Shown: positions 12,134 through 29,737, counted from the first letter of the stretch. The stretch is DNA of 32,000 bases from Akkermansia muciniphila ATCC BAA-835 (GCF_000020225.1 NC_010655.1:1350001-1382000), one strand, 5' to 3'. A program made the numbers and translations. The notes: generated by a model not told the origin, from the letters alone.

Positions 12134-13177
12134 ATGAGCAGTCCAATCAGGAGATTATTCGTCAACGGGTTCCCGAGCCTCTACGGAGGAGCGGGAACGG
12201 AACTTCACCACCAGATCATTGTCTGGCGCAAGATGGGCGTGGAAGTCCATCTCATCCCGTCCTGGGATTACCACGGGGAGCCTCTTTACAACGAGATGGT
12301 TTCCCTGGGCGTTATCATGCACGCCCCAGCGGACTGGTCGGCTGTCCAACCCGGCGACCCCGTGCTCGGTTTCTGCAATGCCGGCTTCCTCAACGCCTTG
12401 CCGGAAATACGAAGGCATACGAAACGCACAGTTTTCATCAACTGCATGACGTGGCTTTTCCCCAGGGAAAAGGAGGCCATGCAAAAGGGGGAAATCGCCA
12501 TGTTCCTCTATCAGAATGAAGCCGTCCGCCAGGAAGCCATGCCCGTGCTGCGCAAGCTCAACGGCGACCCGCAAGTGCAGTTCCTGACCTTCAGGCCCTA
12601 TTTCCATGCGGAATCCTTTCCCTTTATCCGGGAACGCGATGAGGATTTCTTCGGTTGCGGGCGCATCTCCCGCCAGGATGCCGACAAATTCGCGGCCAAC
12701 ACCCTGCATATCTACGGCGCATTCGTATCCCCCGTGCAGAAGCGCGGCCTTTTCCTCGGTTTTGACAAGAGGAGCGAAGCCAAGATAGGCCGGCCCTTCG
12801 ACTGGATTCGGATTGCCCGCAATCAAAGGGAAGTTTCCCAGCAGGATTTTTATAGGCACAGCCGGATCATCCTCCAGCCGACGGATACGACGGAGAACTG
12901 GCCCCGCATCGGCTTTGAGGCGATGGCCAGCGGAAGCGTGCTCATTGTGGACAACCGGGGCGGGTGGCGGCAGATGGTGGAGCACGGCAAAACAGGATGG
13001 CTGTGCAGCAACGAAAGGGATTTCATCTACTACGCTTCCAAAATGGCCTGTGAACCGAATCTTCGCGATGACATGGCGGAGGCGGCCCGGGCGCGCGGCC
13101 TGGAGCTGGGCGGGCTGGATGTTTCCCTGGAGAGCTGGAAGGAAGTGCTGGAGGCGATGGCAAGACTCCCGGAATGA
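12134..13177 (+). CDS. glycosyltransferase, GT4/GT1-fold (GT-B)
   Basis: 347 aa. The C-terminal block TENWPRIGFEAMASGSVLIVDNRGGWRQMVEHGKTGWLCSNERDF is the typical retaining GT-B E-x7-E region. Confidence 0.8.
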   Translation: MSSPIRRLFVNGFPSLYGGAGTELHHQIIVWRKMGVEVHLIPSWDYHGEPLYNEMVSLGVIMHAPADWSAVQPGDPVLGFCNAGFLNALPEIRRHTKRTVFINCMTWLFPREKEAMQKGEIAMFLYQNEAVRQEAMPVLRKLNGDPQVQFLTFRPYFHAESFPFIRERDEDFFGCGRISRQDADKFAANTLHIYGAFVSPVQKRGLFLGFDKRSEAKIGRPFDWIRIARNQREVSQQDFYRHSRIILQPTDTTENWPRIGFEAMASGSVLIVDNRGGWRQMVEHGKTGWLCSNERDFIYYASKMACEPNLRDDMAEAARARGLELGGLDVSLESWKEVLEAMARLPE

Positions 13178-13959
13178 ACATGGAACGGAAAACCGGCCTT
13201 ATGAATAAAAAATATGTTTCCCCGTGTTTCCTGCCCGGCATGCGGCTGGGCAACATCATGTTCACGCTGGCGGCCGCCTGTGCCCACGCCCGTACCGTAG
13301 GGGTGGAGTGCCGGGTGCCCTGGGCTTACAATGACGCTTCCCTGATGCTGCGCTCCCGGCTCGGCGGCTGGGTGCTCCCTTCTACGCCGTGCGGCACCAA
13401 TGAACCTCCATCCTGGCAGGAACCTTCCTTTGCCTATTGTCCGGTTCCCTCCCGCATCCGGACGGGCGGGCTTCGCGGCTACTTCCAGAGCGCACGGTAT
13501 TTTGAAGGGCAGGAAGCGTTCATCCGGGCGCTTTTCGCGCCTCTCACCGCGGAGAAGGAGCCCGGCGCCGTTGGCATTCACATCCGGCTTGGGGACTACA
13601 GGCGCCTCCGTGACAAGCACCGCATTCTGGACCCTGGTTTCCTGCGGAGGGCCGCAGGGCATTTATCATCCGGGAAGAACCGTCTGGTGCTGTTCAGCGA
13701 TGAGCCGGACGAGGCGGCGGAGATGCTTGCGCGCGTGCCGGCATTCGGACGCTTTGCGCTGGAAATCGACCGCGGCGCTCCGTGCGAATCCCTCCGCCGC
13801 ATGACGGCGATGGAGGAACTCGTCATGTCGTGTTCTTCCTTTTCCTGGTGGGGCGCGTGGCTGGGAAATACCCGGAAGGTCATCGTTCCGCGCGACTGGT
13901 TTGTCGGCGGTGTGGAAGACTACCGGGATATTTACCTGCCCCATTGGGTAACACTGTAA
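13174..13959 (+). CDS. GT11-family alpha-1,2-fucosyltransferase-like protein
   Basis: An ATGA overlap (13174-13177) joins it to the upstream stop. GT11 blocks are present: RLGNIMFTLAAACAHA, VGIHIRLGDYRRL, LVLFSDEPDEAAEML and MSCSSFSWWGAWLGN. Alternative start at 13201. Confidence 0.8.
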   Translation: MNMERKTGLMNKKYVSPCFLPGMRLGNIMFTLAAACAHARTVGVECRVPWAYNDASLMLRSRLGGWVLPSTPCGTNEPPSWQEPSFAYCPVPSRIRTGGLRGYFQSARYFEGQEAFIRALFAPLTAEKEPGAVGIHIRLGDYRRLRDKHRILDPGFLRRAAGHLSSGKNRLVLFSDEPDEAAEMLARVPAFGRFALEIDRGAPCESLRRMTAMEELVMSCSSFSWWGAWLGNTRKVIVPRDWFVGGVEDYRDIYLPHWVTL

Positions 13960-13988
13960 TTCCGCCACGAACCCATACCCGTAAAACA

Positions 13989-15677
13989 ATGAATACGAGA
14001 ACCGTTACAAGCCTCTGGGTGGGCGGGGAACTTCCCCTGATGTCCGTTCTGTGCATCAAATCGTTCCTGGACCATGGCCATGCTTTCCAGCTTTTCACCT
14101 ACCGGAATTACGACAATATTCCCGCGGGAACGCTTGTGCGCGATGCGCGGGATATTCTCCCGGAGGAGGCGATTTTCCATGATTCCCACAATAGCCTGGC
14201 GCCGTTTTCCGATTGGTTCCGCATGAAATTCCTTTCACAGGAAGGCGGCTTCTGGGTGGATATGGACGTCATCTGCCTGGGTGATGAACTTCCTGCCTCT
14301 CCTCTCTGGTTCTGCAGGGAGTGGGCGGAGGTGGTGGCCGTAGGCGCCATGGCCTTTCCTCCCGGTCATTCCGTTCCCGCAACCCTGTGCCGCCTTGCTG
14401 AGGATCCGGCGCTCCGCGTCCCCTGGGACTCTCCGGAAGAAGTCCGGGCCAAGGAGGAACTGCTACGCCGTGTGCCGGATATCGCCGATCGCCGGCGCCA
14501 GGTTCCATGGGGATTTTGCGGCCCCACCGGGATGACGCGCGCGTTGCGCCACTGCGGCCTGTTTGACCGGGCCGCTCCGTCTTCCCACATGTATCCGGTC
14601 CCCTGGACGAGATGGCGCGACTGCTACAACGGCAGCATACGCCTTGCCGGGCCGGAATTGTCCAATGCCTGGTGCGTCCACCTCTGGGGAGAGATGGCCA
14701 GGCGGGAGCCGGACGCCTGGGAAAATATGAGCCGCAGCAGCATGGCAGGCGAGCTGCTGGACAGGCATCTGCCGGGCCACGCCTGGAAGCCTGCCCCCGG
14801 GCCGCGTAAAAAAGTGAATATCCTGGTGGGCATCTGCAGCTGCACAGGCGCGGCGAACCGCCGCAAGGCGTGCCGGGAGACCTGGCTTTCCCATCCTCAG
14901 GAGGGTGTGGAATGCAGATTTTTCCTGGGGCGGCGCACTCCTTTGCCCAATGAGCCCGATGTAGTGGCCCTTTGGGTGGAGGACGATTACAGGCACCTGC
15001 CCGCCAAGGGGCTTGCCTTTTATCAATATGCCCTGGAACATTATGACTTTGACTGGCTTTTCAAGTGCGACGACGATACCTGGCTGGCGCTTGACCGCCT
15101 GGAAAGCCTCTGCGACGGCCGCTATGACCTTGTGGGCGACATGTCCCTGGCGGACAGGGGGTTCCCCAGCGGCGGAGCGGGCTACCTGATGAGCCGGGCG
15201 CTTGTGGAGGGTATTGTGGCGCACGGCGGCCGGGTTCCCGCCGTCGGGGCGGAGGACGTCATCTTCGGCCGGCTGGCGCGGGAACTGGGCGCGCGCGTCC
15301 ATGCCACGCCGCGCCTCTTCCTCAGCCATGCTCCGGCGCCCCACCGCCTGAATGACCAGGTGAGCGCCCATTGGTGCTCTCCGGGCAGGATGCACGGCAT
15401 TGAGGCCCTTTTCCATGATGAACCGGTGGCCGTTTATGACGCCGTGCATCCCCATTGGAGGGACGAACTCCTGTTTTTTGCCCGGGGCCGTTTCATGCGC
15501 GGCGCCGGCGGCTGCACCGGGCGCTACGTCCTGCAGGACGGGCTTCTCACGCTGTTCTGGGATGACTGGGCGCCGGAAGCTCTGGAAAAAAACGGCAGCG
15601 GATTTTCCCGCGGTCCGTTCTCCCTGACCCCTGCCGCCGGCAGCCGGCAGCTTCCTTTTCCGGAGTCCGTGTCCTGA
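13989..15677 (+). CDS. two-domain glycosyltransferase: GT32-like (DXD sugar-binding region) N-half plus GT31/Fringe-like (beta-1,3-Gal/GlcNAc-transferase type) C-half
   Basis: 562 aa from ATG 13989; the track start at 13782 overlaps the GT11 gene. The N-half reads LWVGGELPLMSVLCIKSFLDHGH...FSDWFRMKFLSQEGGFWVDMDVICL. The C-half reads KVNILVGICSC..RRKACRETWL..DDYRHLPAKGLAFY..DWLFKCDDDTWL..GGAGYLMSRALV. Confidence 0.8.
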   Translation: MNTRTVTSLWVGGELPLMSVLCIKSFLDHGHAFQLFTYRNYDNIPAGTLVRDARDILPEEAIFHDSHNSLAPFSDWFRMKFLSQEGGFWVDMDVICLGDELPASPLWFCREWAEVVAVGAMAFPPGHSVPATLCRLAEDPALRVPWDSPEEVRAKEELLRRVPDIADRRRQVPWGFCGPTGMTRALRHCGLFDRAAPSSHMYPVPWTRWRDCYNGSIRLAGPELSNAWCVHLWGEMARREPDAWENMSRSSMAGELLDRHLPGHAWKPAPGPRKKVNILVGICSCTGAANRRKACRETWLSHPQEGVECRFFLGRRTPLPNEPDVVALWVEDDYRHLPAKGLAFYQYALEHYDFDWLFKCDDDTWLALDRLESLCDGRYDLVGDMSLADRGFPSGGAGYLMSRALVEGIVAHGGRVPAVGAEDVIFGRLARELGARVHATPRLFLSHAPAPHRLNDQVSAHWCSPGRMHGIEALFHDEPVAVYDAVHPHWRDELLFFARGRFMRGAGGCTGRYVLQDGLLTLFWDDWAPEALEKNGSGFSRGPFSLTPAAGSRQLPFPESVS

Positions 15678-15797: not shown

Positions 15798-18700
15798 ATG
15801 TTTACCAACGATCAACAAAATGACGCCCCCTCTTTGAACAGGGGTTCCGCAAACATGATTAACTCCAACCCCGCCGCCGGGCTTCCCGATGCGGCCAGCC
15901 AGCCCGGCGCGCCGAGCGCCGCAGCGCCCCTCAATGCCATGTCCACACCCATTCAGCCATACGGCGCGGATTCCGTTATTTATGAGAAATCCGACAACTT
16001 CGTTCAGACGTCTGCCGGAGCCGATGTCTTCATGTCTCCAGTCAACGACACCTTTACCGTCCCGGAAGGCGGGGCCACGGCTGTGGCCAGCCTGACGGTG
16101 GATGACTGGGGCAAGCTGACCATTTCCGGCCCGGGCGGCACGTTTGAGCTGGACCTGACCTCCGCCGCCGATGAACCCGGAGAACTGGGAGGCCACCAGG
16201 AATGGTCCAAATCAGGCTCCTTTGAGTTATCCGAAGGCACGTACACTCTCTCCATCACGCACCAGAACATCGACATGCCGCACAACGAATACAACCAGTC
16301 CGTGTGCAGGTACTCCGTGACGGTGACCGCGCATGGGGGCTCCAGCAGCAGTTCAAGCAGTTCGGACACCCCTCCTTCTTCCCTGTCGAGCAGCTCCTCT
16401 TCGGACGTGCCGCCGGAGGAAAAGGAAATCTGCTGCCGTTGCGGTTGTTGTACAGACGCGGAAGGCAATGAATACACCATTGCGGCGGAAAAACTGCCGG
16501 GTGACCCCGGCGTGGAAATCTGCATGTCCCAGGCCGAATTCCTGGCCAGGGGAGGGGCTTCGGCTCCGTCTCCCGCGGCCTTCAGCCTCCGCTCCGCGGA
16601 AAACGCCCGTGAAACGGCGGAAGCCTGCGGCGGCCTGAAATACGTGAGCCCGTGGGCCTGGCGCGCCCATCTGGACGAAACGTCCGGCCTCATCACCATG
16701 GTGCCGCCGGCGGGCGCCGCGCTTTACTTCAACGTGCAGGCCGGTTCCGATACGGCCCTGCCTGCGGGCATCTCCCGCAAGCGCGACTTCAGGGTGCAGC
16801 TGCTGGATGAAACTCTGGCTCCTGCCGCTTCCGGCGCCCCCGCCTACCTTTCCCTGGTGGACGCGGACGGGCAGAAAATCCGCTTCTCCGCGGAAACCGG
16901 CGCTGTGGTCGGCATGACCTCCGCCTCCGGCAGGGTTCTTCTGGCGGAAGACTACTTCCGGAATGTGAGCAATACGTATGACCATGAGGGCAGCCTGGTA
17001 AGCAGCTACAGCGCCGCGGAGGGGCTGATGCGCACCCGGACCGGAGCGGACGGAGAACTCGTCATGGAATGGTACGCTCCCGCCGCCGTCACGGTCCTGG
17101 CCGACGGAACATACGAGGTAACGGGGGAACCTTATAAAACCTCCTCCTTCCTGTCCTCGGAAGAAAACGGCGTGCGGACCACCGTCATCACGCGCCAGCA
17201 GCGCGGACTGCCGGCCCACACCATCACCCGTACGGAAGAACCCGGCAGAGTCAGCATCGCCAAAGGCCAGGGGGACGACACCATCATCCGTACCATTGAA
17301 ACCAACCGCCTCTACGGAGGCCTCTCGGAACGCATTGAGACCGTCAGGGGCATCAACGATGCCGAGCCTGTTTCCTGCAGCCGCAGCGTCAGGCAATACA
17401 CGGACGGCGGCTGGCTGCTGGTAAGCGAAACGGAAGCCTTCAACACGCCGCTGGCGCGGACGACCTCCTACGAATACAACAGCCAGTACCGCGTCTCCCG
17501 GATCAACCGCCCGGACGGAGGCTACACGCGCTATGAATACGACGGCGAAGGACGGGTCACGCTTGAGGCGGCGCCCTGGGCCGGCGGCGGAGAACAGGTA
17601 ACCCGGACCGAATACGCCGGCCTGCGCTTCTACGACAACCGTCCGGTGCGTGTCGCCGAATCCCGGGTGCTGTCCGACGGCACGGAAATCGAACTGACGG
17701 CCGTCGCTTACGCCTATGAGCAGTCTCCCCTCATGGAACGGGTTGTCAAAACCGTGACTGCCGCCGGTTCCAGCCAGGAACAGACAAGCGTGGAAGAAAC
17801 GTATGGAGAAGCCGCCGCCTATCCCTATGCCGCCGGGCAAATGAAATTCACCCGGGACATTGCCGGAGTGGAAACCTCCTATGACTATGAGGCGGCCGCG
17901 GAACACGGCGCCGCGCATAAAAAGACGGCCATCACCAAAGCCGGCGGCGGACTGGTGGCCGGACAGAGCCGCAAGACGGAATCGTTCATTGCCGCCAATG
18001 ATACGGTGCTTTTTGAGCAGGAAAGCATCTGGGATGGTGAAAACTGGCTGCTGCTCTCAAGCGGCGCCCATGAATACGATGAAGAAGGCCGCCGCACGAA
18101 AACCACGCGGGGCAACGGCCGCGTCAGCGTCACGTCCTGGATGTGCTGCGGCAAGCTCTCGGAAACGGACGAAGATGGTGTCCTGACGTCGTACGGTTAC
18201 AACAGCGCCCACCAGCTGGTGGAAACCATCCGTTCGGAAATCAGCGACGGAGACACGGTCGTTACCCCGGAAACCATCACCACCTACACCCGGGACGCCT
18301 CCGGGCGCGCCCTGCAGACGCGCCGGGACAGGGGAGCCATGACCACGACGGAAAGCGTGGAATACGACAGGCTCGGCCGTATCGTCAGGCAAACGGATGT
18401 GCTGGGTCGGGTGACGGCGACAGCCTACAGCGAAGACGGCCTTACGGAAACCGTCACGACGCCCTCCGGCGCTACCCTCGTCACGGAATATCATGCCGAC
18501 GGCTCCGTACTTCATGAATACGGCACGGGACAGCGCGAACGCTGCCATGTCTATGACATTGACAATAACTGTTTGAGGGAAACCGTTACCCTGGCCGGCC
18601 AGACCATCATCCTTTCCCGGACCCTGGTCAACGGCTTCGGACAAAGCGTCGTGCAAGTGACGCCCACGACTGCCGGGTTCCTGTATGACCGTTCCGAATA

Positions 18701-21700
18701 CGATGAACAGGGGAGTCTCATCCGCTCATGGAGGGATGCGGGAACGCAGGAGGGGGCCGTCGCCATGGCGCCTGCGCTCTATGAATACGATGCCTTTGGC
18801 AACATGACCAGGGAAACGCTCGCCCTGGCGGAGCAGCCCGCTCCGGACAACAGCCCCATCCGGGAATATGCCTTCAGCGTGGAAAACGCGGAGGACGGCG
18901 TCTATATGGTGACGGCGCAAATCCGCTACAATGCTGAGGGACAGCCGCTTGTCTCCGTACGGAAGCAGCTCCTGTCCGAACTCTCCGGAGTTCTGGAAAC
19001 AAAAACGGTCATCGTTAACGAACGCGGCTTGACTTCGGCGGAATGGACGGAGTATGCTGGAAATACGAAAAGAATCCAAAAGAGCGTTATCCCCTCTTCC
19101 AGCGTCACGGCTCAAACGGTGGCGATGGATGGTTGGGTGCTCTCGCAGCAGAACCACGCGGGCATCACGGAGACGGCCGCCCGCGCCTATACGGCCTCGG
19201 GCATGACTCTGACCCGCACGGACGGCCGCGGCAACACGGTCACGACCCGGACCGACCTGGCCGGTCGGGCCGTCAGCGTGACGGACGCCGCGGGGAATGA
19301 AACCGTGACGCAATACGACTCCTGCCACGACCTGGCTGCCGTAGTGACGGACGCGCTGGGCAATACGAAATGCGCCAGATACGACGCCAGAGGCCGGAAA
19401 ACGGCCGAATGGGGGACGGGGACGCAGCCCCTGCTCATGGGCTATGACGAGGCCGACCGCCTGGTGAGCCTGACCACCTTCCGCGCGGCGCAGGAAGGCG
19501 ACATCGCGGAGGACCCCTCCGAGCGCGCGGACGGCGACACCACCACCTGGAACTATGACGAAGCCACGGGGCTGGAAACGCGCAAAACCTATGCCGACGG
19601 AACGCACGTGGACAAAACCTGGGACGCCTTCAACAGGCTTGCTACGGAAACAAACGCCCGCGGCATCGTCAAGACCTGCACTTACGAACAGCCACGCGGG
19701 CTGCTGGTGGGAATCAGCTACTCAGACGCCACGCCCGGCCAGAGCTTCGCCTACGATCACCTCGGTCAATTGACGCAAATCACTGATGTTGCCGGAACGC
19801 GAACCTTCGCCTACAATCTCTACGGAGAACCGGAAACCGACAGCCTTGCGGCAAACGGCATCGCCTGGCAGGTCTCCGAGCGCTATGACGGGCTTGGCCG
19901 TCAGGCGGGGTACGAATTAAGCGCGGACGGCCGCCGCGTCCAGCAGACGCACCTGTCCTATGACGGGAAAGGCCGCCTCTCCACCCTCACGGCGGAAGGC
20001 ATGGAAACGCCCTTCTCCTGGACTTACTCCGAACATGGAGGGCTTGTGGAACAACTCGCCTACCCCAACGGCATGACCCGGGTCAACACCTATGAAGACA
20101 GCCGCGACCTCCTCTCCGTCATCGACTACCAGAGGCCCGGAAGCGCCAACCCGCCGGCAAGGCACGAATACGACTACGACGCGCTGGGCCGTCCTGCACG
20201 GCGCAGGGACACGTGGAACACGGCGGCGCCCAAAACGACGCGTTTGTTCACCTACAACAGCCGTGGCGAACTGGTCGGAGATCAGCTCAGGCCCGGCGGC
20301 CGCTTTGGCTATCAGTACGACAACATCGGCAACCGGAAAGAAGCCTTCGAATTCGGCAGCACCACGGACTATGAAACCGATGAACTCAACCGGTATGCGG
20401 GCATCGTCAGAAATAGAGGGGAAGCCTTTACACCCCAATACGACGCGGACGGCAACCAGACGCTGGTAAAAACATCCACGGGCATCTGGGAAGTCACCTA
20501 CAACGCGGAAAACCGGCCCGTGAAATTCGAAAGCGAAGACGGAGGGACAACCGTGGAATGCGCCTACGACTCCATGGGCAGGAGATTCGAGAAAAAAGTG
20601 ACGGTTGGAGGGACAACGGGCTTCCACGCGCGCTACCTCTACCGTGACTACCTGCAGGTGGCGGAGTGCGACTTGACCGGGGAAACGCCGGAGGTTGTGC
20701 GCAGTTACATCTGGGACCCCTCGGAACCTGAGGCCACGCGCGTCCTGTCCATGACGCGCTGGGAAGCGAACGGGACGCAGGAGAAAGAGCATCTCTACTG
20801 CATGCACGACGCGATGAAAAACGTCACCTCCCTCTTCGGGGAAGCGCGCGGACGCCGCGCCCTGTATGAATACCGGCCGTACGGAGGTCTGATCACGTCG
20901 GAAGGCAACATGGCGGAAGAGAACAAATTCCGCTTCTCCAGCGAATACATGGACGACGAACTTGGGCTGGTCTACTACAACTACCGGCATCTCAATCCGC
21001 TTGACGGCAGGTGGATCAGCCGCGATCCCATTGAGGAAGAAGGTGGTTGGAATTTGTTCGCGTTTGTAGGAAATAGAATTTTTAATCAAGCTGATATTTT
21101 AGGGTTGTGGCCATGGTCCCAGAAACAACCAGATCCTCCAACCTTTACAACAGAAACAAAAAAATGTCCAGATAAAAATACGATAAGCGTAGTTGTGCGT
21201 AGAAGTAACGAAATTACGGTGGATGCAGACGGTTCTCCTCGTGCGTATCATCCAAAAAACATAGGGTTAGATGATAATAGAAATGGAGGAATAGGAAAAG
21301 ATAATTACGGTATTGTTAGTCCTGATGTTATTCAAGGGAAAAATGATCCTGCTCCAGGTTATTATGTATCAGTTACAGCATTATTCGATCCCCGGAAAAA
21401 GAAAACAGACCCTCGTAGATATGTAAATTCAGAAGTAATTCCATATCTTGTTTTTAATAAAGAGGATAGAAAAAAAGGTGCTAAGGCCGGTGATTATGCA
21501 ACAGTTACTAAAAAGATGCCAAATGGTGATCTTTTAATTGTTCACGCTATTGTTGCAGATTATAACCCTTATTCTAAAGGGGAAGGTTCTATAAAATTAG
21601 TAAAGGAATTAGGAGGAAATCCGGATCCTAGAAGAGGAGGGGTAAAATGTAAGGAAGGTTTTACTATTTACGTGTATCCTGGGACTGCAGAAAAATTTGA

Positions 21701-21773
21701 TAGCGATAAAGTTTCTCATGAAACTATTCAAAAAAAAGGTAAAGAAATTTGGGATAAGCAGCATAACAAATAA
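15798..21773 (+). CDS. RHS/YD-repeat polymorphic toxin (1991 aa) with variable C-terminal toxin tip
   Basis: Many YD repeats are present: YEYDGEGRV, VEYDRLGRI, YEYDAFGNM, ARYDARGRK, FAYDHLGQL, LSYDGKGRL, YDYDALGRP, YQYDNIGNR, PQYDADGNQ and CAYDSMGRR. The RHS core ends ...YNYRHLNPLDGRWISRDPIEEEGGWNLFAFVGNRIFNQADILGL at nt 21107, and an AT-rich tip follows. Confidence 0.95.
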   Translation: MFTNDQQNDAPSLNRGSANMINSNPAAGLPDAASQPGAPSAAAPLNAMSTPIQPYGADSVIYEKSDNFVQTSAGADVFMSPVNDTFTVPEGGATAVASLTVDDWGKLTISGPGGTFELDLTSAADEPGELGGHQEWSKSGSFELSEGTYTLSITHQNIDMPHNEYNQSVCRYSVTVTAHGGSSSSSSSSDTPPSSLSSSSSSDVPPEEKEICCRCGCCTDAEGNEYTIAAEKLPGDPGVEICMSQAEFLARGGASAPSPAAFSLRSAENARETAEACGGLKYVSPWAWRAHLDETSGLITMVPPAGAALYFNVQAGSDTALPAGISRKRDFRVQLLDETLAPAASGAPAYLSLVDADGQKIRFSAETGAVVGMTSASGRVLLAEDYFRNVSNTYDHEGSLVSSYSAAEGLMRTRTGADGELVMEWYAPAAVTVLADGTYEVTGEPYKTSSFLSSEENGVRTTVITRQQRGLPAHTITRTEEPGRVSIAKGQGDDTIIRTIETNRLYGGLSERIETVRGINDAEPVSCSRSVRQYTDGGWLLVSETEAFNTPLARTTSYEYNSQYRVSRINRPDGGYTRYEYDGEGRVTLEAAPWAGGGEQVTRTEYAGLRFYDNRPVRVAESRVLSDGTEIELTAVAYAYEQSPLMERVVKTVTAAGSSQEQTSVEETYGEAAAYPYAAGQMKFTRDIAGVETSYDYEAAAEHGAAHKKTAITKAGGGLVAGQSRKTESFIAANDTVLFEQESIWDGENWLLLSSGAHEYDEEGRRTKTTRGNGRVSVTSWMCCGKLSETDEDGVLTSYGYNSAHQLVETIRSEISDGDTVVTPETITTYTRDASGRALQTRRDRGAMTTTESVEYDRLGRIVRQTDVLGRVTATAYSEDGLTETVTTPSGATLVTEYHADGSVLHEYGTGQRERCHVYDIDNNCLRETVTLAGQTIILSRTLVNGFGQSVVQVTPTTAGFLYDRSEYDEQGSLIRSWRDAGTQEGAVAMAPALYEYDAFGNMTRETLALAEQPAPDNSPIREYAFSVENAEDGVYMVTAQIRYNAEGQPLVSVRKQLLSELSGVLETKTVIVNERGLTSAEWTEYAGNTKRIQKSVIPSSSVTAQTVAMDGWVLSQQNHAGITETAARAYTASGMTLTRTDGRGNTVTTRTDLAGRAVSVTDAAGNETVTQYDSCHDLAAVVTDALGNTKCARYDARGRKTAEWGTGTQPLLMGYDEADRLVSLTTFRAAQEGDIAEDPSERADGDTTTWNYDEATGLETRKTYADGTHVDKTWDAFNRLATETNARGIVKTCTYEQPRGLLVGISYSDATPGQSFAYDHLGQLTQITDVAGTRTFAYNLYGEPETDSLAANGIAWQVSERYDGLGRQAGYELSADGRRVQQTHLSYDGKGRLSTLTAEGMETPFSWTYSEHGGLVEQLAYPNGMTRVNTYEDSRDLLSVIDYQRPGSANPPARHEYDYDALGRPARRRDTWNTAAPKTTRLFTYNSRGELVGDQLRPGGRFGYQYDNIGNRKEAFEFGSTTDYETDELNRYAGIVRNRGEAFTPQYDADGNQTLVKTSTGIWEVTYNAENRPVKFESEDGGTTVECAYDSMGRRFEKKVTVGGTTGFHARYLYRDYLQVAECDLTGETPEVVRSYIWDPSEPEATRVLSMTRWEANGTQEKEHLYCMHDAMKNVTSLFGEARGRRALYEYRPYGGLITSEGNMAEENKFRFSSEYMDDELGLVYYNYRHLNPLDGRWISRDPIEEEGGWNLFAFVGNRIFNQADILGLWPWSQKQPDPPTFTTETKKCPDKNTISVVVRRSNEITVDADGSPRAYHPKNIGLDDNRNGGIGKDNYGIVSPDVIQGKNDPAPGYYVSVTALFDPRKKKTDPRRYVNSEVIPYLVFNKEDRKKGAKAGDYATVTKKMPNGDLLIVHAIVADYNPYSKGEGSIKLVKELGGNPDPRRGGVKCKEGFTIYVYPGTAEKFDSDKVSHETIQKKGKEIWDKQHNK
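19704..19754 (+). repeat. 51-bp anchor repeat (LVGISYSDATPGQSFAY), copy in main rhs
   Basis: ctggtgggaatcagctactcagacgccacgcccggccagagcttcgcctac recurs at 22548-22598 with three mismatches. It also recurs in degraded form at 24621-24669. Confidence 0.85.
20969..21107 (+). repeat. 139-bp core-end repeat, copy A (main rhs)
   Basis: Aligns base for base with 23711-23849; I count six mismatches. It encodes VYYNYRHLNP.DGRWISRDPIEEEGGWNLFAFVGN.IFNQ.DILGL. Confidence 0.85.
21108..21770 (+). other. C-terminal toxin domain of the RHS protein; GH75 (chitosanase-type)-like fold proposed
   Basis: 221 codons at roughly one-third G+C on sampled lines. Three blocks (ITVDADGSPRAYHP, VIPYLVFNKED and GDYATVTKKMPNGDLLIVHAIVADYNPYSKGEGSIKLVKELG) parallel GH75 blocks recalled from memory: DxDG, PYVVF and GxWGDTN...GEASISLA. 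Confidence 0.45.
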
Positions 21774-21785
21774 TACAATAATTAT

Positions 21786-22364
21786 ATGAAATTATACATA
21801 GTATCTTTAATACTATTTTTTAGTACATCAAACTGTCAATATAATCTTAAAACGGTTGTAGAACCTAATAAAAATCATGATAGTGCCATTGTTGATGATG
21901 TTCAAATATTGGAAAAATCATCTAGTAGTTCAATATGGAAAAAATATTATGTTAAAATTCATGGCCTAGAAAAAGATATTCCAGGAGAATATATAGATTC
22001 TCCATACATTATTGAATACAAAAATAGACTTATTCTAGTATGTTCTATTAAAAGAGAGTCGGTTGTTTTTGTTGTTACAAGAAAAAATAATCAATTGGAG
22101 TTTATTCCTGTAACTGAAAAAAATAATTATGAATTGTTCATGGATAAATGTCGAAATATGAAATATTATCCTATTCGTTTTGTAAATGGAACATTGCTTA
22201 AATTGAAAAATGGGCAACTAGTATCTGATTATTCGATAGAGTGTTCTTCTAAAGAATTTCCCGATCCTTCTGATATTATTTATTTAGAATTTAAAGGAAT
22301 ATTTGATTTTGATTTCAAAAAAAATATATTGGAATTGAAAAGTATAGAAGGGCCTATAAATTAA
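21786..22364 (+). CDS. putative cognate immunity protein (exported, signal peptide/lipoprotein-like)
   Basis: ATG lies 12 nt after the rhs stop. AT-rich like the tip. The N-terminus is MKLYIVSLILFFSTSNCQ... No family recognised. Confidence 0.65.
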   Translation: MKLYIVSLILFFSTSNCQYNLKTVVEPNKNHDSAIVDDVQILEKSSSSSIWKKYYVKIHGLEKDIPGEYIDSPYIIEYKNRLILVCSIKRESVVFVVTRKNNQLEFIPVTEKNNYELFMDKCRNMKYYPIRFVNGTLLKLKNGQLVSDYSIECSSKEFPDPSDIIYLEFKGIFDFDFKKNILELKSIEGPIN

Positions 22365-22502: not shown

Positions 22503-24116
22503 ATGAGGATGAGCAAATATTCATCCTGCCTTATCCACCGGAATTTTCTGGTGGGAATTAGCTATTCGGACGCCACGCCCGGCCAGAGCTTCGCCTACAA
22601 TCCCTACGGAGAACTGGAAACCGACAACCTGCGAGTGGGCAACCACACCCACCTCATCACCGAGAAAAAAGACGCCTTCGGGCGCAGCACAGGCTACATC
22701 TACGCGCGGAGCGGCGCGGCGCAGCACACCGTAAGCATCGGCTACGGGGAAGACGGCCGCATCGCCACGGCCGGGTTCCTGCAGGGCAGCGCGCCCCAGA
22801 CCTTCACCTGGCAATACATGGAAGGAAGCGGCCTGCCCTCCGTGATGGCCATGCCCAACGGCATGACGCTGGAATGGGGCTATGAGGAAAAGCGGAATCT
22901 GGTCTCTACCATGGTCTACAAACGCGGCGCCACAAGAGTTGTGGAAAGGGAATACGTTTACGACAGCCTGGCAAGGCCCGTTACGCGGCGCACGGCCCGC
23001 CAGGGGAATACCGTCAACGACAGCTTTGCCTGCAACAGCCGGAGCGAACTGACCGCCGCCACCGTCAGCGGCAAGACATACGGCTACAGTTACGACAACA
23101 TAGGCAACCGGAAAACCGCGCGGGAAGACGCGGAAGAAGCGACCGCCTACACAACCGGCCCGCTCAACCAATACACCGCCATCGAGCGCGGAGAAGAAGC
23201 CGCCTTTGAGCCGGTTCACGACGCGGACGGCAATCAGACATTGATCAGGACATCCACCGGCATCTGGCAAGTCGCCTACAACGCGGAAAACCGCCCGGTG
23301 CGCTTCGTCAATGAAAGCGCCAAAACCGTGGTGGAATGCACCTACGACTACATGGGCAGGCGGCACACCCGCAAAGTGAGCGTCAACGGGACGGTGAGCA
23401 GCTACCTGCGCTACATGTACCGTGGCTACCTGCAAATAGCCGCCATAGATGCCGTCAGCGGAGTCTTTCGATGGTTCCTGTTCTGGGACCCGACGCAGCC
23501 TGAGGCTGCGCGTCCGCTGGCCATCCGCAAAGACGGCGCCTGGTACGCCTACGGGTGGGATCTGACCGGGAACGTCACGGGAATCTTCGGGAAAGCCGGT
23601 TACCTGCGGACGGTCTACACCTACACGCCTTACGGAGAAGTCACCGCCGAAGGGGATGTCACCCAGCCCATCCAGTGGAGCAGCGAATACAGTGACGAAG
23701 AACTGGGGTTGGTCTACTACAACTACCGGCATCTCAATCCGCACGACGGAAGGTGGATCAGCCGCGATCCCATCGAGGAAGAAGGTGGTTGGAATTTGTT
23801 CGCGTTTGTAGGAAATAAAATTTTTAATCAATCTGATATTTTAGGGTTGATATGTACAATAGAATATAGTATAAAATTACATACAATATTAATAAGGAAG
23901 GTAGATAAAGATAGTAATATACTTCGTTTAACGACGAGTAGAGTTTTTTCTGGAAATGGTGATGGGAAAAATAATCCGGACAATGTTGGAAATAAAGATA
24001 ACGGTCCTATACCACCAGGGAAATACTATGTGATAAAAAGACAATCTGGAGGAATTCGGAGCCAAATTAAAGATTGGACCTACAAATTATGGAATGATAA
24101 TGATAAGAATCAATAG
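22503..24116 (+). CDS. orphan RHS C-terminal cassette 1 (core fragment plus Tlde1/DUF2778-like tip, ending at an in-frame TAG)
   Basis: Homology to the main rhs gene begins at 22548 (LVGISYSDATPGQSFAY). YD repeats and the core end ...YNYRHLNPHDGRWISRDPIEEEGGWNLFAFVGNKIFNQSDILGL (ends 23849) are present. The AT-rich tip reads ...FSGNGDGKNNPDNVGNKDNGPIPPGKYYVIKR... ATG 22503 is probably fortuitous. Confidence 0.8.
   Translation: MRMSKYSSCLIHRNFLVGISYSDATPGQSFAYNPYGELETDNLRVGNHTHLITEKKDAFGRSTGYIYARSGAAQHTVSIGYGEDGRIATAGFLQGSAPQTFTWQYMEGSGLPSVMAMPNGMTLEWGYEEKRNLVSTMVYKRGATRVVEREYVYDSLARPVTRRTARQGNTVNDSFACNSRSELTAATVSGKTYGYSYDNIGNRKTAREDAEEATAYTTGPLNQYTAIERGEEAAFEPVHDADGNQTLIRTSTGIWQVAYNAENRPVRFVNESAKTVVECTYDYMGRRHTRKVSVNGTVSSYLRYMYRGYLQIAAIDAVSGVFRWFLFWDPTQPEAARPLAIRKDGAWYAYGWDLTGNVTGIFGKAGYLRTVYTYTPYGEVTAEGDVTQPIQWSSEYSDEELGLVYYNYRHLNPHDGRWISRDPIEEEGGWNLFAFVGNKIFNQSDILGLICTIEYSIKLHTILIRKVDKDSNILRLTTSRVFSGNGDGKNNPDNVGNKDNGPIPPGKYYVIKRQSGGIRSQIKDWTYKLWNDNDKNQ
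22548..22598 (+). repeat. 51-bp anchor repeat, copy at the 5' edge of orphan 1
   Basis: See 19704-19754. Homology to the main gene starts exactly here. Confidence 0.85.
23711..23849 (+). repeat. 139-bp core-end repeat, copy B (orphan 1)
   Basis: See copy A at 20969-21107. Confidence 0.85.
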
Positions 24117-24353
24117 CTCGCTTTCATTGCAATAGATGATGCATTAGACGATCAAAAAGAAATTAATGGAGTTTTTAGGTCTTCTTTTCGAATGCATTAT
24201 GGAACAAGATCTTTGAGGTGTATTACTTTTTTAGATAAAGAAGTATTTGAAAAAGCGCGTGAATTTATCCTTGAAACTGAATCTAGAACAGTAAAAGGAG
24301 CAGATGGAACAGAATATATATATTATGGAATTTTGGAAGTTAAAAAAGAATAG
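24117..24353 (+). pseudogene. in-frame continuation of the orphan-1 toxin tip beyond TAG 24114-24116
   Basis: The same frame stays open for 78 more codons, to TAG 24351-24353. It reads LAFIAIDDALDDQKEINGVFRSSFRMHYGTRSLRCITFLDKEVFEKAREFI..., which holds the His...Cys block expected in the second half of an L,D-transpeptidase-like (Tlde1) fold. Confidence 0.55.
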
Positions 24354-24642
24354 AAAAAGAATTGTTTTTTGTATTATTTTTTGTAGTATAATAACATTTC
24401 TTATTTTTACATTAGCATGTAAAATTATAGGAGCAGATGTCATGGAGGCTTGTGTTCCTGTTCATATAATGAGGATGATTATGAACAATTTTTATCCAGA
24501 AATAATTATTGATGGAGAGATATCCTATAGTATCCTTATGTATGATAGTTTTATTTTTTATGGGACAATTATTTTTTTAATAACATTTTTATGCATTTAT
24601 AAAAACAAGTCCGTGGGTTGCTGTGGGAATCGGCTATTCTGA
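24304..24642 (+). CDS. small polytopic membrane protein, immunity-like (orphan cassette 1)
   Basis: AT-rich ORF with alternative starts at 24304 and 24325. Hydrophobic segments are IVFCIIFCSIITFLIFTLAC and FIFYGTIIFLITFLCIY. Its last codons and stop (24640-24642) lie inside the rhs-homologous DNA of the next orphan. Confidence 0.5.
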   Translation: MEQNIYIMEFWKLKKNRKRIVFCIIFCSIITFLIFTLACKIIGADVMEACVPVHIMRMIMNNFYPEIIIDGEISYSILMYDSFIFYGTIIFLITFLCIYKNKSVGCCGNRLF

Positions 24643-25030
24643 CGCCACGCCTGTCAGAGCTTTACATACAACCATCTCAGTCAATTGACACAGGTTGAGG
24701 ATGCTAGAAGCGACCGTCTACACAACCGGCCCGCTCAACCAATACACCGCCATCGAGCGCGGAGAAGAAGCCGCCTTTGAACCGGTTTACGACGCGGACG
24801 GCAATCAGACATTGATCAGGACATCCACCGGCATCTGGCAAGTCGCCTACAACGCGGAAAACCGCCCGGTGCGCTTCGTCAATGAAAGCGCCAAAACCGT
24901 GGTGGAATGCACCTACGACTACATGGGCAGGCAGCACACCCGCAAAGTGAGCGTCCGATGGTTCCTGTTCTGGGACCCGACGCAGCCTGAGGCTACACGC
25001 CCGCTGGCCATCCGCAAAGACGGCACCTGA
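24621..25030 (+). pseudogene. orphan RHS fragment 2 (mosaic, internally deleted, truncated)
   Basis: 24621-24669 repeats the GISYSDATPGQSFAY anchor in degraded form. 24707-24955 is near-identical to orphan 1 at 23136-23384. A stretch of about 84 nt present in orphan 1 is then missing, and homology resumes up to TGA 25028-25030, where orphan 1 has TGG. Confidence 0.75.
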
Positions 25031-28899: not shown

Positions 28900-29264
28900 T
28901 CAAGGGTATTTGCATATAGCAGAGTGCGGATTGACCGAGGAAATGCCGGATTCGTGCGCAGTTACATCTGGGACCCCTCGAAACCGGCGGCTGTGCGCAT
29001 CCTGACAGTGACGGGCCGGGAAGCGAACGGGATGCTAAGTGAAGGAGCGTTTCTACTGCGTGCACGAGACGATGAAAAACGTTACCTCCCTCTTCGGGGA
29101 AGAGTATATGGTCGCCGTGCCCTGTACGAATACCAGCCGTATGGAGGTCTGACACGTCGGAAGGCAATATGGGGGAAGAAAACGGGTTCCACTTCTCGAG
29201 CGAATACATGGATGGCGAACTGGGGCTGGTCTATCACAGTGTTCATCGGTATCAATTCGTTTGA
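28900..29264 (+). pseudogene. RHS core remnant 3 (frameshifted)
   Basis: A G+C-rich patch alignable by eye to the main gene at about 20640-21000 (...AECxLTxExPxxVRSYIWDPSxP...RRALYEYxPYGGL...SEYMDxELGLVY...). Indels break the frame, and the piece ends at TGA 29262-29264, before the DPxGL-type core end. Confidence 0.8.
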
Positions 29265-29393
29265 TATCTTTGGAGCGGCCTCATTCCTGTTGGAAATCTG
29301 TCAACGGGGATTGGAAAGAGATAGGTATTCATGCAGAGTTAGTTCTGTAAATTTTGTTGAGGAAGTCTTTTGGAATTCTGTATGGGATTCAAG

Positions 29394-29426
29394 CTGCATC
29401 CGGTATGTTCCGGGTGCAGTTTTTGT
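29394..29426 (+). terminator. rho-independent terminator at the distal end of the rhs island
   Basis: Stem ctgcatccgg (29394-29403) pairs with ccgggtgcag (29410-29419), including one G-U pair, across the loop tatgtt. It is followed by tttttgtg. Confidence 0.65.
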
Positions 29427-29737
29427 GTAAACGGGTTGAGAAAGACTTGCCGTTATCCGCCTTCCGGGAAGAACGGAAAGCGGGAGCGCAGCCGGAAGAA
29501 TTAATTTTTTCTTAACAAGAAGAAGAAGGAAGTTAACTACCCAGAATGGAATTTCCGGATATATTGAGGCAATGTTTTTACATTATATTAAACATCGCCG
29601 GTCCGTTCCGGGACTCCGTATCTGCCATAGCGGTTTTTCCGTGAAATTTTTTCAGATAAAAAAGAAAAACGGCATAGAATAATATTTTTGTTTCCATATA
29701 TGTTGGAATGGTTTGAATTTAAATTTCATAAAATATC

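Follow-up and report, generated by a model that had tools for sequence, protein, structure and literature searches.

Proteins of the RHS family enclose a C-terminal tip in a shell of YD repeats and release it by autoproteolysis at the junction where the core ends, and RHS toxin-immunity loci with arrays of orphan modules are textbook knowledge. Koskiniemi et al. are said to have described, in 2013, the classical RHS toxins with their C-terminal tips and downstream immunity genes. Here, we describe a locus of this type in a 32,000-nucleotide (nt) window of Akkermansia muciniphila ATCC BAA-835 (NC_010655.1:1350001-1382000; all coordinates count from the first letter of this window). An open reading frame (ORF) on the + strand, 15798..21773, encodes a protein of 1991 amino acids (aa) that exactly matches ACD04969.1/B2UR84, and its last 221 residues form a tip that almost certainly belongs to the GH75 family. 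On balance, we favor the view that ACD04969.1 is a polymorphic RHS toxin whose GH75 tip would act in the periplasm by glucosamine (GlcN)-dependent hydrolysis of peptidoglycan, with immunity conferred by the product of the next gene downstream.

The closest characterized relative of the tip is V-Csn, a GH75 endo-chitosanase of a soil phage (PDB 7TVL-7TVP; Wu et al. 2022, PMC9485262). Only six positions are conserved throughout GH75, namely four acids and two glycines (PMC9485262). In V-Csn, the D148N and E157Q substitutions reduce activity and both residues are needed; E157 is the proposed proton donor, D36 the proposed base, and D50/N54 are proposed to form subsite +1, while at subsite -2 D36 and D148 bind GlcN through its free amine (PMC9485262). 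Several viral GH75 members and some bacterial ones have a domain-2 insertion that the fungal ones lack (PMC9485262).

The RHS part of ACD04969.1 resembles that of classical RHS/YD toxins in its YD shell, a DPxGL-like core end, a variable tip of low guanine-cytosine (GC) content, an immunity-like ORF next to it, and orphan modules behind. Residues 1-1770 (15798..21107, +) comprise an N-terminal region, the YD/RHS repeat shell and the RHS-associated core, with matches to RHS_repeat (PF05593, 2.6e-33, 10 stretches) in Pfam and to YD_repeat_2x (TIGR01643, 1.2e-22) and RHS_core in NCBIfam. The Rhs_assc_core domain (20871..21107, +; NCBIfam TIGR03696, 1.2e-17, residues 1692-1770, model positions 1-76 of 76) ends with ...RDPIEEEGGWNLFAFVGNRIFNQADILGL, the presumed autoproteolytic junction. 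Its last matched residue, 1770, is the L of ...NQADILGL, encoded up to nt 21107, which gives the core a DPxGL-type end (DILGL). A direct repeat of 169 nt, shared at 93% identity between 20939-21107 and an orphan copy at 23681-23849, stops exactly at 21107, and the GC content falls from 61.5% in the RHS core to 35.9% in the tip and 25.0% in the next ORF. Because the repeat stops and the GC content breaks just where the TIGR03696 match ends, we place the boundary between core and tip at 21107. The first-pass annotation of this DNA had ended the core at the same motif and position, and the three peptide blocks that it quoted from the tip recur verbatim in the translation of 15798..21773.

The tip also behaves as an exchangeable cassette. 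The same RHS core cluster bears other tips elsewhere, for example in a 1918-aa "tlde1 domain-containing" member from another strain, and the same GH75 tip (90% identity) is carried on a different Akkermansia RHS core (P0165). Hence, a multi-repeat shell, a core domain with a DPxGL-type end, and an exchangeable tip followed by orphan modules, the features of an RHS/YD polymorphic toxin, are all present. The exact ACD04969.1 protein was found on 30 contigs, and tips that are 90-96% identical to its own, with an intact active site, are found in other strains. By analogy with the family, cleavage would be expected at the ...DILGL junction.

We then compared the tip with proteins of known structure. 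A phmmer search of the tip against all PDB sequences matched only the five V-Csn entries; the alignment with 7TVM (E = 6.2e-24, 88 bits) joins tip residues 36-201 to V-Csn residues 31-198 with few gaps. An AlphaFold2 model of the tip, built from a 51-sequence alignment (A1; the tip plus 50 homologs, PF07335 scan at E <= 0.01), has a mean predicted local distance difference test (pLDDT) score of 90.6. A Foldseek search of PDB with this model returned V-Csn 7TVM at E = 1.6e-16, with a template modeling (TM) score of 0.72 and a root-mean-square deviation of 2.5 Å over 194 columns at 32-34% identity. The remaining PDB matches had E > 0.06, the best of them being double-psi beta-barrel (DPBB) proteins such as MltA, LtgG and barwin. 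Both the sequence and the structural match to V-Csn lie far beyond chance, so that the resemblance to GH75 proposed in the first-pass annotation stands, and so does the structural comparison that it had suggested as a check.

The homologous region, tip residues 36-201 (21213..21710, +), forms the GH75-family catalytic domain and consists of the DPBB domain 1 and a domain-2 insertion of ~70 residues, as phmmer, Foldseek and the homologs agree; this is the layout of the GH75 fold, in which the barrel domain flanks a variable insertion that makes up the cleft. It is preceded by a linker, tip residues 1-35 (WPWSQKQPDPP...; 21108..21212, +), which lies outside the alignment with V-Csn and is probably unstructured, its first 30 residues being modeled at low confidence (mean pLDDT ~50-74). 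It is followed by a C-terminal helix (21711..21773, +; residues 204-219 in the AlphaFold2 model) and the stop codon, TAA at 21771-21773.

The active site of V-Csn can be read directly in the tip. Tip residues D39, D41, D55, N59, D151 and E159, which are residues D1809, D1811, D1825, N1829, D1921 and E1929 of the full protein, correspond to V-Csn D34, D36, D50, N54, D148 and E157, and all six are conserved. In the DNA, the codons of D1809-A-D1811 (DADG) lie at 21222..21230 (+), those of D1825...N1829, the equivalent of the subsite +1 pair proposed in V-Csn (PMC9485262), at 21270..21284 (+), and those from D1921 (ADYN) to E1929 (GEGS) at 21558..21584 (+); the codons of the four acids were checked. 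The four acids D1809, D1811, D1921 and E1929, together with G1812 and G1928, are invariant in a five-sequence alignment that includes V-Csn, as are D1825 and N1829. D55 is invariant in A1, and in both A1 and a second alignment of 130 relatives (A3; PF07335 scan at E <= 0.001) D151 is invariant and E159 at least 90% conserved. The glutamine of the V-Csn chain that carries E157Q aligns opposite E1929. We take G1812 and G1928 (tip G42 and G158) to be the two conserved glycines of GH75. The Asp of ADYN and the Glu of GEGS had been put forward earlier as the catalytic pair, and they indeed fall on D148 and E157, the pair supported by mutation in V-Csn.

Homology to a characterized GH75 enzyme, the GH75 fold and the conserved D-D-D-E/Gly set thus coincide in the tip. 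In A1, 48 of the 50 homologs matched Pfam PF07335 itself, and in A3 so did 104 of the 130 relatives (59 bits for P0167, 52 for P0166, and 27.5 for the RHS-linked P0173), and a search of 5.8 billion proteins yielded 187 homologs of the tip, most with a precomputed PF07335 annotation. It is because of the solved relative V-Csn, the fold and these PF07335-positive homologs that we hold GH75 membership to be nearly certain. The retention of the complete D-D-D-E set and of the domain-2 insertion argues for the chemistry of a GH75 inverting hydrolase, and the tip is predicted to be a catalytically intact enzyme of the inverting endo-beta-1,4-glucosaminidase type. The only Pfam match of the tip itself, to DFP at E = 0.15, was judged spurious.

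To see in what company such domains occur, we consider the wider set of relatives. A HMMER search of 1.84 billion representative proteins gave 1035 relatives of the GH75 tip at E <= 1e-3, most of them free-standing proteins of 230-360 aa. In GTDB species genomes, they are found mainly in Myxococcota (Archangium), Cytophagaceae and other Bacteroidota, Verrucomicrobiota, Paenibacillus, Acidobacteriota and cyanobacteria. In the nearest relatives outside Akkermansia (42-49% identity), GH75 is fused to PG_binding_1 or PG_binding_3. The domains that co-occur with GH75 in A3 and in the long hits are mostly peptidoglycan directed: PG_binding_1/3, Peptidase_M15_2/3, YkuD_2, GH25 muramidase, CHAP, SPOR, SH3_3 and SLH. 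Examples of such fusions are found among P0166, P0176, P0002-P0011 and A3; in one further case a GH75-like domain is joined to a bacterial alpha-2-macroglobulin. The Myxococcota proteins that combine GH75 with PG_binding_1 or PG_binding_3 (e.g., Archangium P0002) share the active site of the tip but are stand-alone secreted enzymes of 330-350 aa with no RHS carrier. That they are joined to peptidoglycan-binding modules suggests that they and the tip act on one class of substrate.

GH75 has been recruited independently to other toxin chassis at least twice. First, P0173 (L083 4555-7687, JGI 3300044642), encoded on a metagenomic contig that resembles an integrative and conjugative element, is a YD-shell protein in which a GH75 domain, 44% identical to the tip, comes after a ...VDYLGQ junction. 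Second, P0255 (L084 561-2677, Logan SRR29483436) is a 438-aa protein with a PAAR-linker-GH75 arrangement. The ORFs after P0173 and P0255 both have export-type N termini, one with a twin-arginine translocation (Tat)-like SRRKLTK followed by a hydrophobic stretch and the other hydrophobic. The partner ORFs of the three toxin-GH75 fusions, those of ACD04969.1, P0173 and P0255, are mutually unrelated, and each has a signal- or Tat-like N terminus. BLASTP found no similarity between ACD04970.1, the protein encoded downstream of the tip, and the ORF downstream of P0173, so the candidate immunity proteins are not one family. Three unrelated partners with signal-like starts beside three independent fusions suggest that the enzyme acts outside the cytoplasm.

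In ACD04969.1, the partner follows closely. The stop codon of the tip is separated by 12 nt (TACAATAATTAT) from the ATG at 21786 that begins ACD04970.1 (21786..22364, +), a putatively exported protein of 192 aa and the putative cognate immunity protein, as its position, GC content and co-inheritance with the tip suggest. Its N terminus, MKLYIVSLILFFSTSNC (21786..21836, +), is signal-peptide-like, with a Kyte-Doolittle hydropathy above 2 over residues 1-15, and ends in N16-C17, which are at least 90% conserved in the family. Both the spacing and the signal-like start described for this gene in the first-pass annotation are therefore present. Three further cysteines (Cys86, Cys122 and Cys153) are invariant or nearly so and fit an extracytoplasmic protein; these features fit a protein that would be exported, possibly lipidated, and disulfide bonded. 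Pfam and NCBIfam scans of ACD04970.1 found no family match, and all of its 40 detectable family members come from Akkermansia or other Akkermansiaceae. An AlphaFold2 model (pLDDT 75.6; residues 37-192 mostly above 80) is all-beta with one helix.

The tip and ACD04970.1 are inherited together. Another assembly, L085, contains an orphan copy of the tip and, again 12 nt behind it, the same 192-aa ORF. In an uncultured Akkermansia sp. (L001 3121-4249, CAZGGR010000004.1), a decayed orphan tip, in which the DADG block is gone, an internal stop has arisen and GEGS has become GEDS, still adjoins the partner ORF, itself shortened to 142 aa. Around this orphan is an array of further low-GC ORFs that resemble tips and immunity genes. 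The most divergent homolog of ACD04970.1 (P0340, 47% identity; L081 8001-8588, Akkermansiaceae metagenome-assembled genome GCA_021202695.1) is found by itself, flanked by panC and a hydrolase gene, and neither an RHS nor a GH75 gene occurs within 8 kb of it; such a homolog in a toxin-less locus is what one would expect of an orphan immunity gene. Because of the conserved spacing in the first case, the persistent adjacency in the second and this lone homolog, the tip and ACD04970.1 probably form a cognate toxin-immunity pair, in which ACD04970.1 would confer immunity by binding the tip.

Taken together, these results suggest the following sequence of events. The tip would be carried inside the RHS shell and released at the ...DILGL junction; it would then act in the periplasm of the target cell, where it is predicted to hydrolyze a beta-1,4 glycan containing free-amine glucosamine, and the producer would be protected by exported ACD04970.1, presumably through binding of the enzyme. 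A periplasmic site of action and a glycan target are suggested by the N termini of the partner proteins and by the fusion partners of the relatives, and endo-hydrolysis of a beta-1,4 glycan with a free GlcN amine at subsite -2 by the chemistry of GH75. To our knowledge, peptidoglycan with de-N-acetylated N-acetylglucosamine (GlcNAc) is the only beta-1,4 polymer of the Gram-negative envelope known to offer a free GlcN amine. The likeliest substrate would hence be the glycan strand of de-N-acetylated peptidoglycan, a proposal that we rate as close to an even call and regard as the weakest link of the scheme.

The wall of A. muciniphila itself bears on this proposal. Its peptidoglycan was reported to have 43% of its GlcNAc de-N-acetylated, a remarkable exception among the gut bacteria profiled (bioRxiv 10.1101/2023.10.08.561446), and a value of ~40% is credited there to Garcia-Vello et al. 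2022. Two reviews repeat the observation, one of them giving ~87%, so that secondary sources disagree (~40-43% versus ~87%). De-N-acetylation of GlcNAc is generally seen as protecting peptidoglycan against lysozyme (PMC11382707). Because Akkermansia itself is unusually rich in GlcN-containing peptidoglycan, the weapon may be tuned to rival Akkermansia strains: a GlcN-requiring tip would be matched to Akkermansia walls and mismatched to fully N-acetylated ones.

Several observations weigh against this scheme. PF07335 gave no match to the tip alone at E <= 1 (gathering score 27 bits), so the profile check proposed in the first-pass annotation came back negative, and an NCBIfam scan of the tip found no match either; we attribute the PF07335 miss to the sensitivity of the model on a K-rich, low-GC tip and do not count it as evidence against homology. 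We know of no GH75 enzyme shown to cut peptidoglycan or a GlcN-N-acetylmuramic acid (MurNAc) glycan, the proven activity being on chitosan only, and MurNAc with its lactyl peptide would need to fit subsite -1 or +1 beside the scissile bond. A tblastn search of 50,697 GenBank phage records with the tip gave no match, which leaves an endolysin-like role of close relatives undocumented there; in the viral predicted structures of BFVD, Foldseek found weak matches to the tip, the best with TM scores of 0.42-0.44. As to the partner, the lipobox of ACD04970.1 at Cys17 is non-canonical, with export judged by hydropathy, and its model matches no known inhibitor fold: Foldseek against PDB returned nothing at E <= 0.001 and no TM score above 0.34. 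Finally, ACD04969.1 has no recognizable trafficking domain or signal peptide, and no secretion genes lie in the window.

We weighed four other explanations. The tip might be a genuine chitosanase directed at non-bacterial chitosan, either as an antifungal effector acting on fungal walls in the gut or for the use of dietary or fungal chitosan as a nutrient, in which case the downstream ORF would not encode immunity. The closest characterized protein is after all an endo-chitosanase (PMC9485262), the residues of the -2 subsite that bind the GlcN amine are conserved, and many relatives belong to Myxococcota, Cytophagaceae and Paenibacillus, degraders of fungal polymers. We nevertheless consider this unlikely: encapsulation in an RHS protein with a co-inherited, putatively exported small protein encoded 12 nt away is a toxin-immunity pattern, the lone ACD04970.1 homolog resembles an orphan immunity gene, and the ACD04970.1 family is confined to Akkermansiaceae. 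Moreover, a signal-like ORF lies downstream of each of the three independent toxin-GH75 fusions, and relatives are joined to peptidoglycan-binding or -lytic modules, not to chitin-binding ones.

Alternatively, the tip might share only the DPBB scaffold with GH75 and work as a non-hydrolytic, MltA-like lytic transglycosylase or by expansin-like loosening of peptidoglycan. The weak Foldseek matches to MltA, LtgG, barwin and cerato-platanin (E 0.06-0.6) are of the kind this would predict, and the DPBB kinship of GH75 with barwin, cerato-platanin, expansins and GH45 endoglucanases has been noted (PMC9485262). Yet the match to V-Csn exceeds that to any MltA by 15 orders of magnitude, and both the complete D-D-D-E set and the domain-2 insertion have been kept, which makes such a mechanism quite improbable.

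Similarly improbable is action on another GlcN-containing polymer of the envelope or matrix, such as partly de-N-acetylated poly-N-acetylglucosamine (PNAG), a capsule or an exopolysaccharide; the effect would then be the stripping of a biofilm or capsule and not lysis. This alternative was raised in the first-pass annotation itself; GH75 does need free amines, and the RHS gene has glycosyltransferase genes just upstream (12134..15677). PNAG is beta-1,6-linked, though, whereas GH75 cleaves beta-1,4-chitosan. Cutting an external matrix would need neither periplasmic immunity nor RHS delivery, and the fusion partners of the relatives are peptidoglycan specific. The upstream glycosyltransferase genes, for their part, lie outside the low-GC cassette because their GC content is normal (58-68% in 400-nt windows over 14000-15600, versus 36% and 25% in the tip and the partner ORF).

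Lastly, that the tip and the ORF are an evolutionary remnant or an inactive passenger is very improbable: the cassette has decayed in another Akkermansia species (L001) and the locus is full of orphan fragments, but the tip of ACD04969.1 continues the frame of a full-length 1991-aa RHS protein and retains all its catalytic residues, the exact RHS protein recurs on 30 contigs, other strains hold intact-site tips of 90-96% identity, and the exact ACD04970.1 protein is found on 671 contigs.

We return to the RHS toxin with a periplasm-acting GH75 tip and to the question of how it would be delivered. The N terminus of ACD04969.1 sets it apart from classical RHS/YD toxins, having neither PAAR nor a signal peptide nor a known trafficking domain. 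Residues 1-560 (15798-17480) gave no Pfam match, no PDB match in phmmer, no PAAR and no hydrophobic signal; we suggest that they may form an uncharacterized trafficking domain peculiar to the Rhs proteins of Akkermansia. Around residues 180-240, this region contains poly-Ser tracts and a Cys-rich EKEICCRCGCC stretch. Among the ORFs scanned in the window, there was no PAAR, VgrG or Hcp and no other secretion gene; ACD04969.1 thus shows neither the targeting N-terminal domain nor the linkage to vgrG, hcp or EagR that marks type VI secretion system (T6SS) effectors, and nothing in the window supports the T6SS association implied in the first-pass annotation. The extracellular vesicles that clade AmII of A. 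muciniphila produces are enriched in Rhs proteins and damage AmI cells, although the authors give no tip functions, and in the gut mutual exclusion is seen between single Akkermansia clades (PMC11923206). By analogy, vesicles, a lead taken from the literature, or an unrecognized system are possible routes of delivery, and a GlcN-dependent Akkermansia toxin would fit both the exclusion between clades and the damage by AmII vesicles.

The region downstream of the cassette holds several orphan RHS modules. Directly behind ACD04970.1 lies a 5'-truncated orphan RHS core with a tip of the Tlde1 (L,D-transpeptidase-like) type (22503..24116, +; Tlde1_dom PF10908, 5.2e-10; TIGR03696, 4e-18). It shares repeats with the main core, and its GC content drops at 23850. 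This orphan tip matches profile positions 4-49 of 120 only and may be truncated. Next comes a hydrophobic small ORF of low GC content (26%; 24304..24642, +) with no family match, which by position is a candidate immunity gene for the orphan Tlde1 tip. A further RHS core remnant (24695..25030, +) is 98% and 95% identical to 23135-23384 and 23469-23542, respectively, and a degraded remnant of a core end (28924..29430, +) is 84-89% identical to 20697-20979. Tlde1 is a periplasm-acting T6SS effector, and its presence next door speaks for an envelope target of the GH75 tip as well. Tlde1 RHS tips, found as an orphan right behind the cassette here and on the main RHS protein in other Akkermansia strains, are peptidoglycan directed, as the GH75 tip is proposed to be; they differ in having an unrelated fold and in targeting the peptide stem, not the glycan.

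Apart from these orphan modules, the genes downstream of the RHS gene include kdpA, and those upstream comprise a putative NUDIX/RrnaAD fusion, transporters including MatE and TrkH, ORFs of unknown function and glycosyltransferases. At the start of the window, an ORF at 5-964 holds the end of an RrnaAD match and NUDIX in one frame, which could be either a fusion or a read-through of adjacent genes. Of the two glycosyltransferase genes directly upstream (12134-15677), the first has GT1-like matches, and the second encodes 631 aa with Galactosyl_T, Gb3_synth, DXD and Fringe-like matches.

How does the GH75 tip compare with enzymes already described? V-Csn is homologous over tip residues 36-201 and has the same two-domain fold, an identical D-D-D-E set and the D50/N54 equivalents, but it is a free-standing phage protein that has been read as an auxiliary metabolic enzyme for chitosan, whereas the tip is fused to an RHS shell, lies in a low-GC exchangeable cassette, has a dedicated, putatively exported partner, and has a substrate that is predicted. 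The T6SS effectors that attack glycan strands, including the Tge muramidases, VgrG3 and other "chitosanase-like" VgrG and WHIX proteins, resemble the tip in its proposed periplasmic action on the peptidoglycan glycan backbone and in having periplasmic immunity partners. Vibrio cholerae VgrG3 has been described as resembling lysozyme-like chitosanases, and the extension of Erwinia VgrG2 resembles the Streptomyces N174 chitosanase (1CHK). The latter enzyme we take to belong to GH46. By these descriptions, VgrG3 and Erwinia VgrG2 stand apart from the tip, a GH75 DPBB beta-barrel enzyme whose -2 subsite is predicted to read a free amine. We also compared the last 100 residues of one WHIX example, WP_023247212.1, and found no similarity to the tip; with the other effectors described as lysozyme- or GH46-like, we provisionally rejected WHIX effectors as prior art.

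The first-pass annotation knew of no effector tip with a chitosanase fold. Chitosanase-like T6SS effectors (VgrG3, Erwinia VgrG and WHIX) have already been described, so the novelty is limited to the GH75 fold, for which the claim holds. The first 300,000 of the 357,715 characters of a 2012 survey of polymorphic toxins (PMC3482391) make no mention of a chitosanase, glycosyl hydrolase, barwin or double-psi. In the literature searched, no paper paired GH75 with "polymorphic toxin", searches combining chitosanase with Rhs and GH75 with T6SS gave no GH75 toxin but only chitosanase-like effectors of the lysozyme or GH46 type, and one preprint that mentions GH75 together with peptidoglycan proposes no lytic role for GH75. 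An expansion of Rhs proteins in Akkermansia has been noted earlier (PMC8920140, PMC11923206). As far as this literature goes, ACD04969.1 therefore joins a known delivery scaffold to an enzyme family not previously recognized as an antibacterial toxin.

RHS tips define what is killed, and a GH75 glycosidase with a DPBB fold would be a new class of toxin domain. If the tip cuts GlcN-containing peptidoglycan, it would represent a new enzymatic class among envelope-targeting effectors, would provide a first physiological reason, other than chitosan catabolism, for the GH75 enzymes of bacteria and phages, and would link a modification that confers lysozyme resistance to a matching counter-weapon. 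The fusions to peptidoglycan modules also raise the question of whether the phage "chitosanase auxiliary metabolic genes" of the GH75 clade really encode cell-wall enzymes. We tentatively suggest that the GH75 tip may serve kin-directed lysis of Akkermansia-type walls, so that de-N-acetylation becomes a vulnerability, and may contribute to the one-clade-per-host pattern; by extension, the domain-2-bearing bacterial and phage GH75 clade, including those phage genes and the myxobacterial fusions to PG-binding modules, might consist of lytic enzymes for de-N-acetylated peptidoglycan and not serve chitosan metabolism. A. muciniphila is a leading candidate for a next-generation probiotic, and exclusion between its clades has been linked to vesicles and possibly to Rhs proteins (PMC11923206). 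With a toxin-immunity pair now defined and its substrate and catalytic residues predicted, clade exclusion becomes directly testable.

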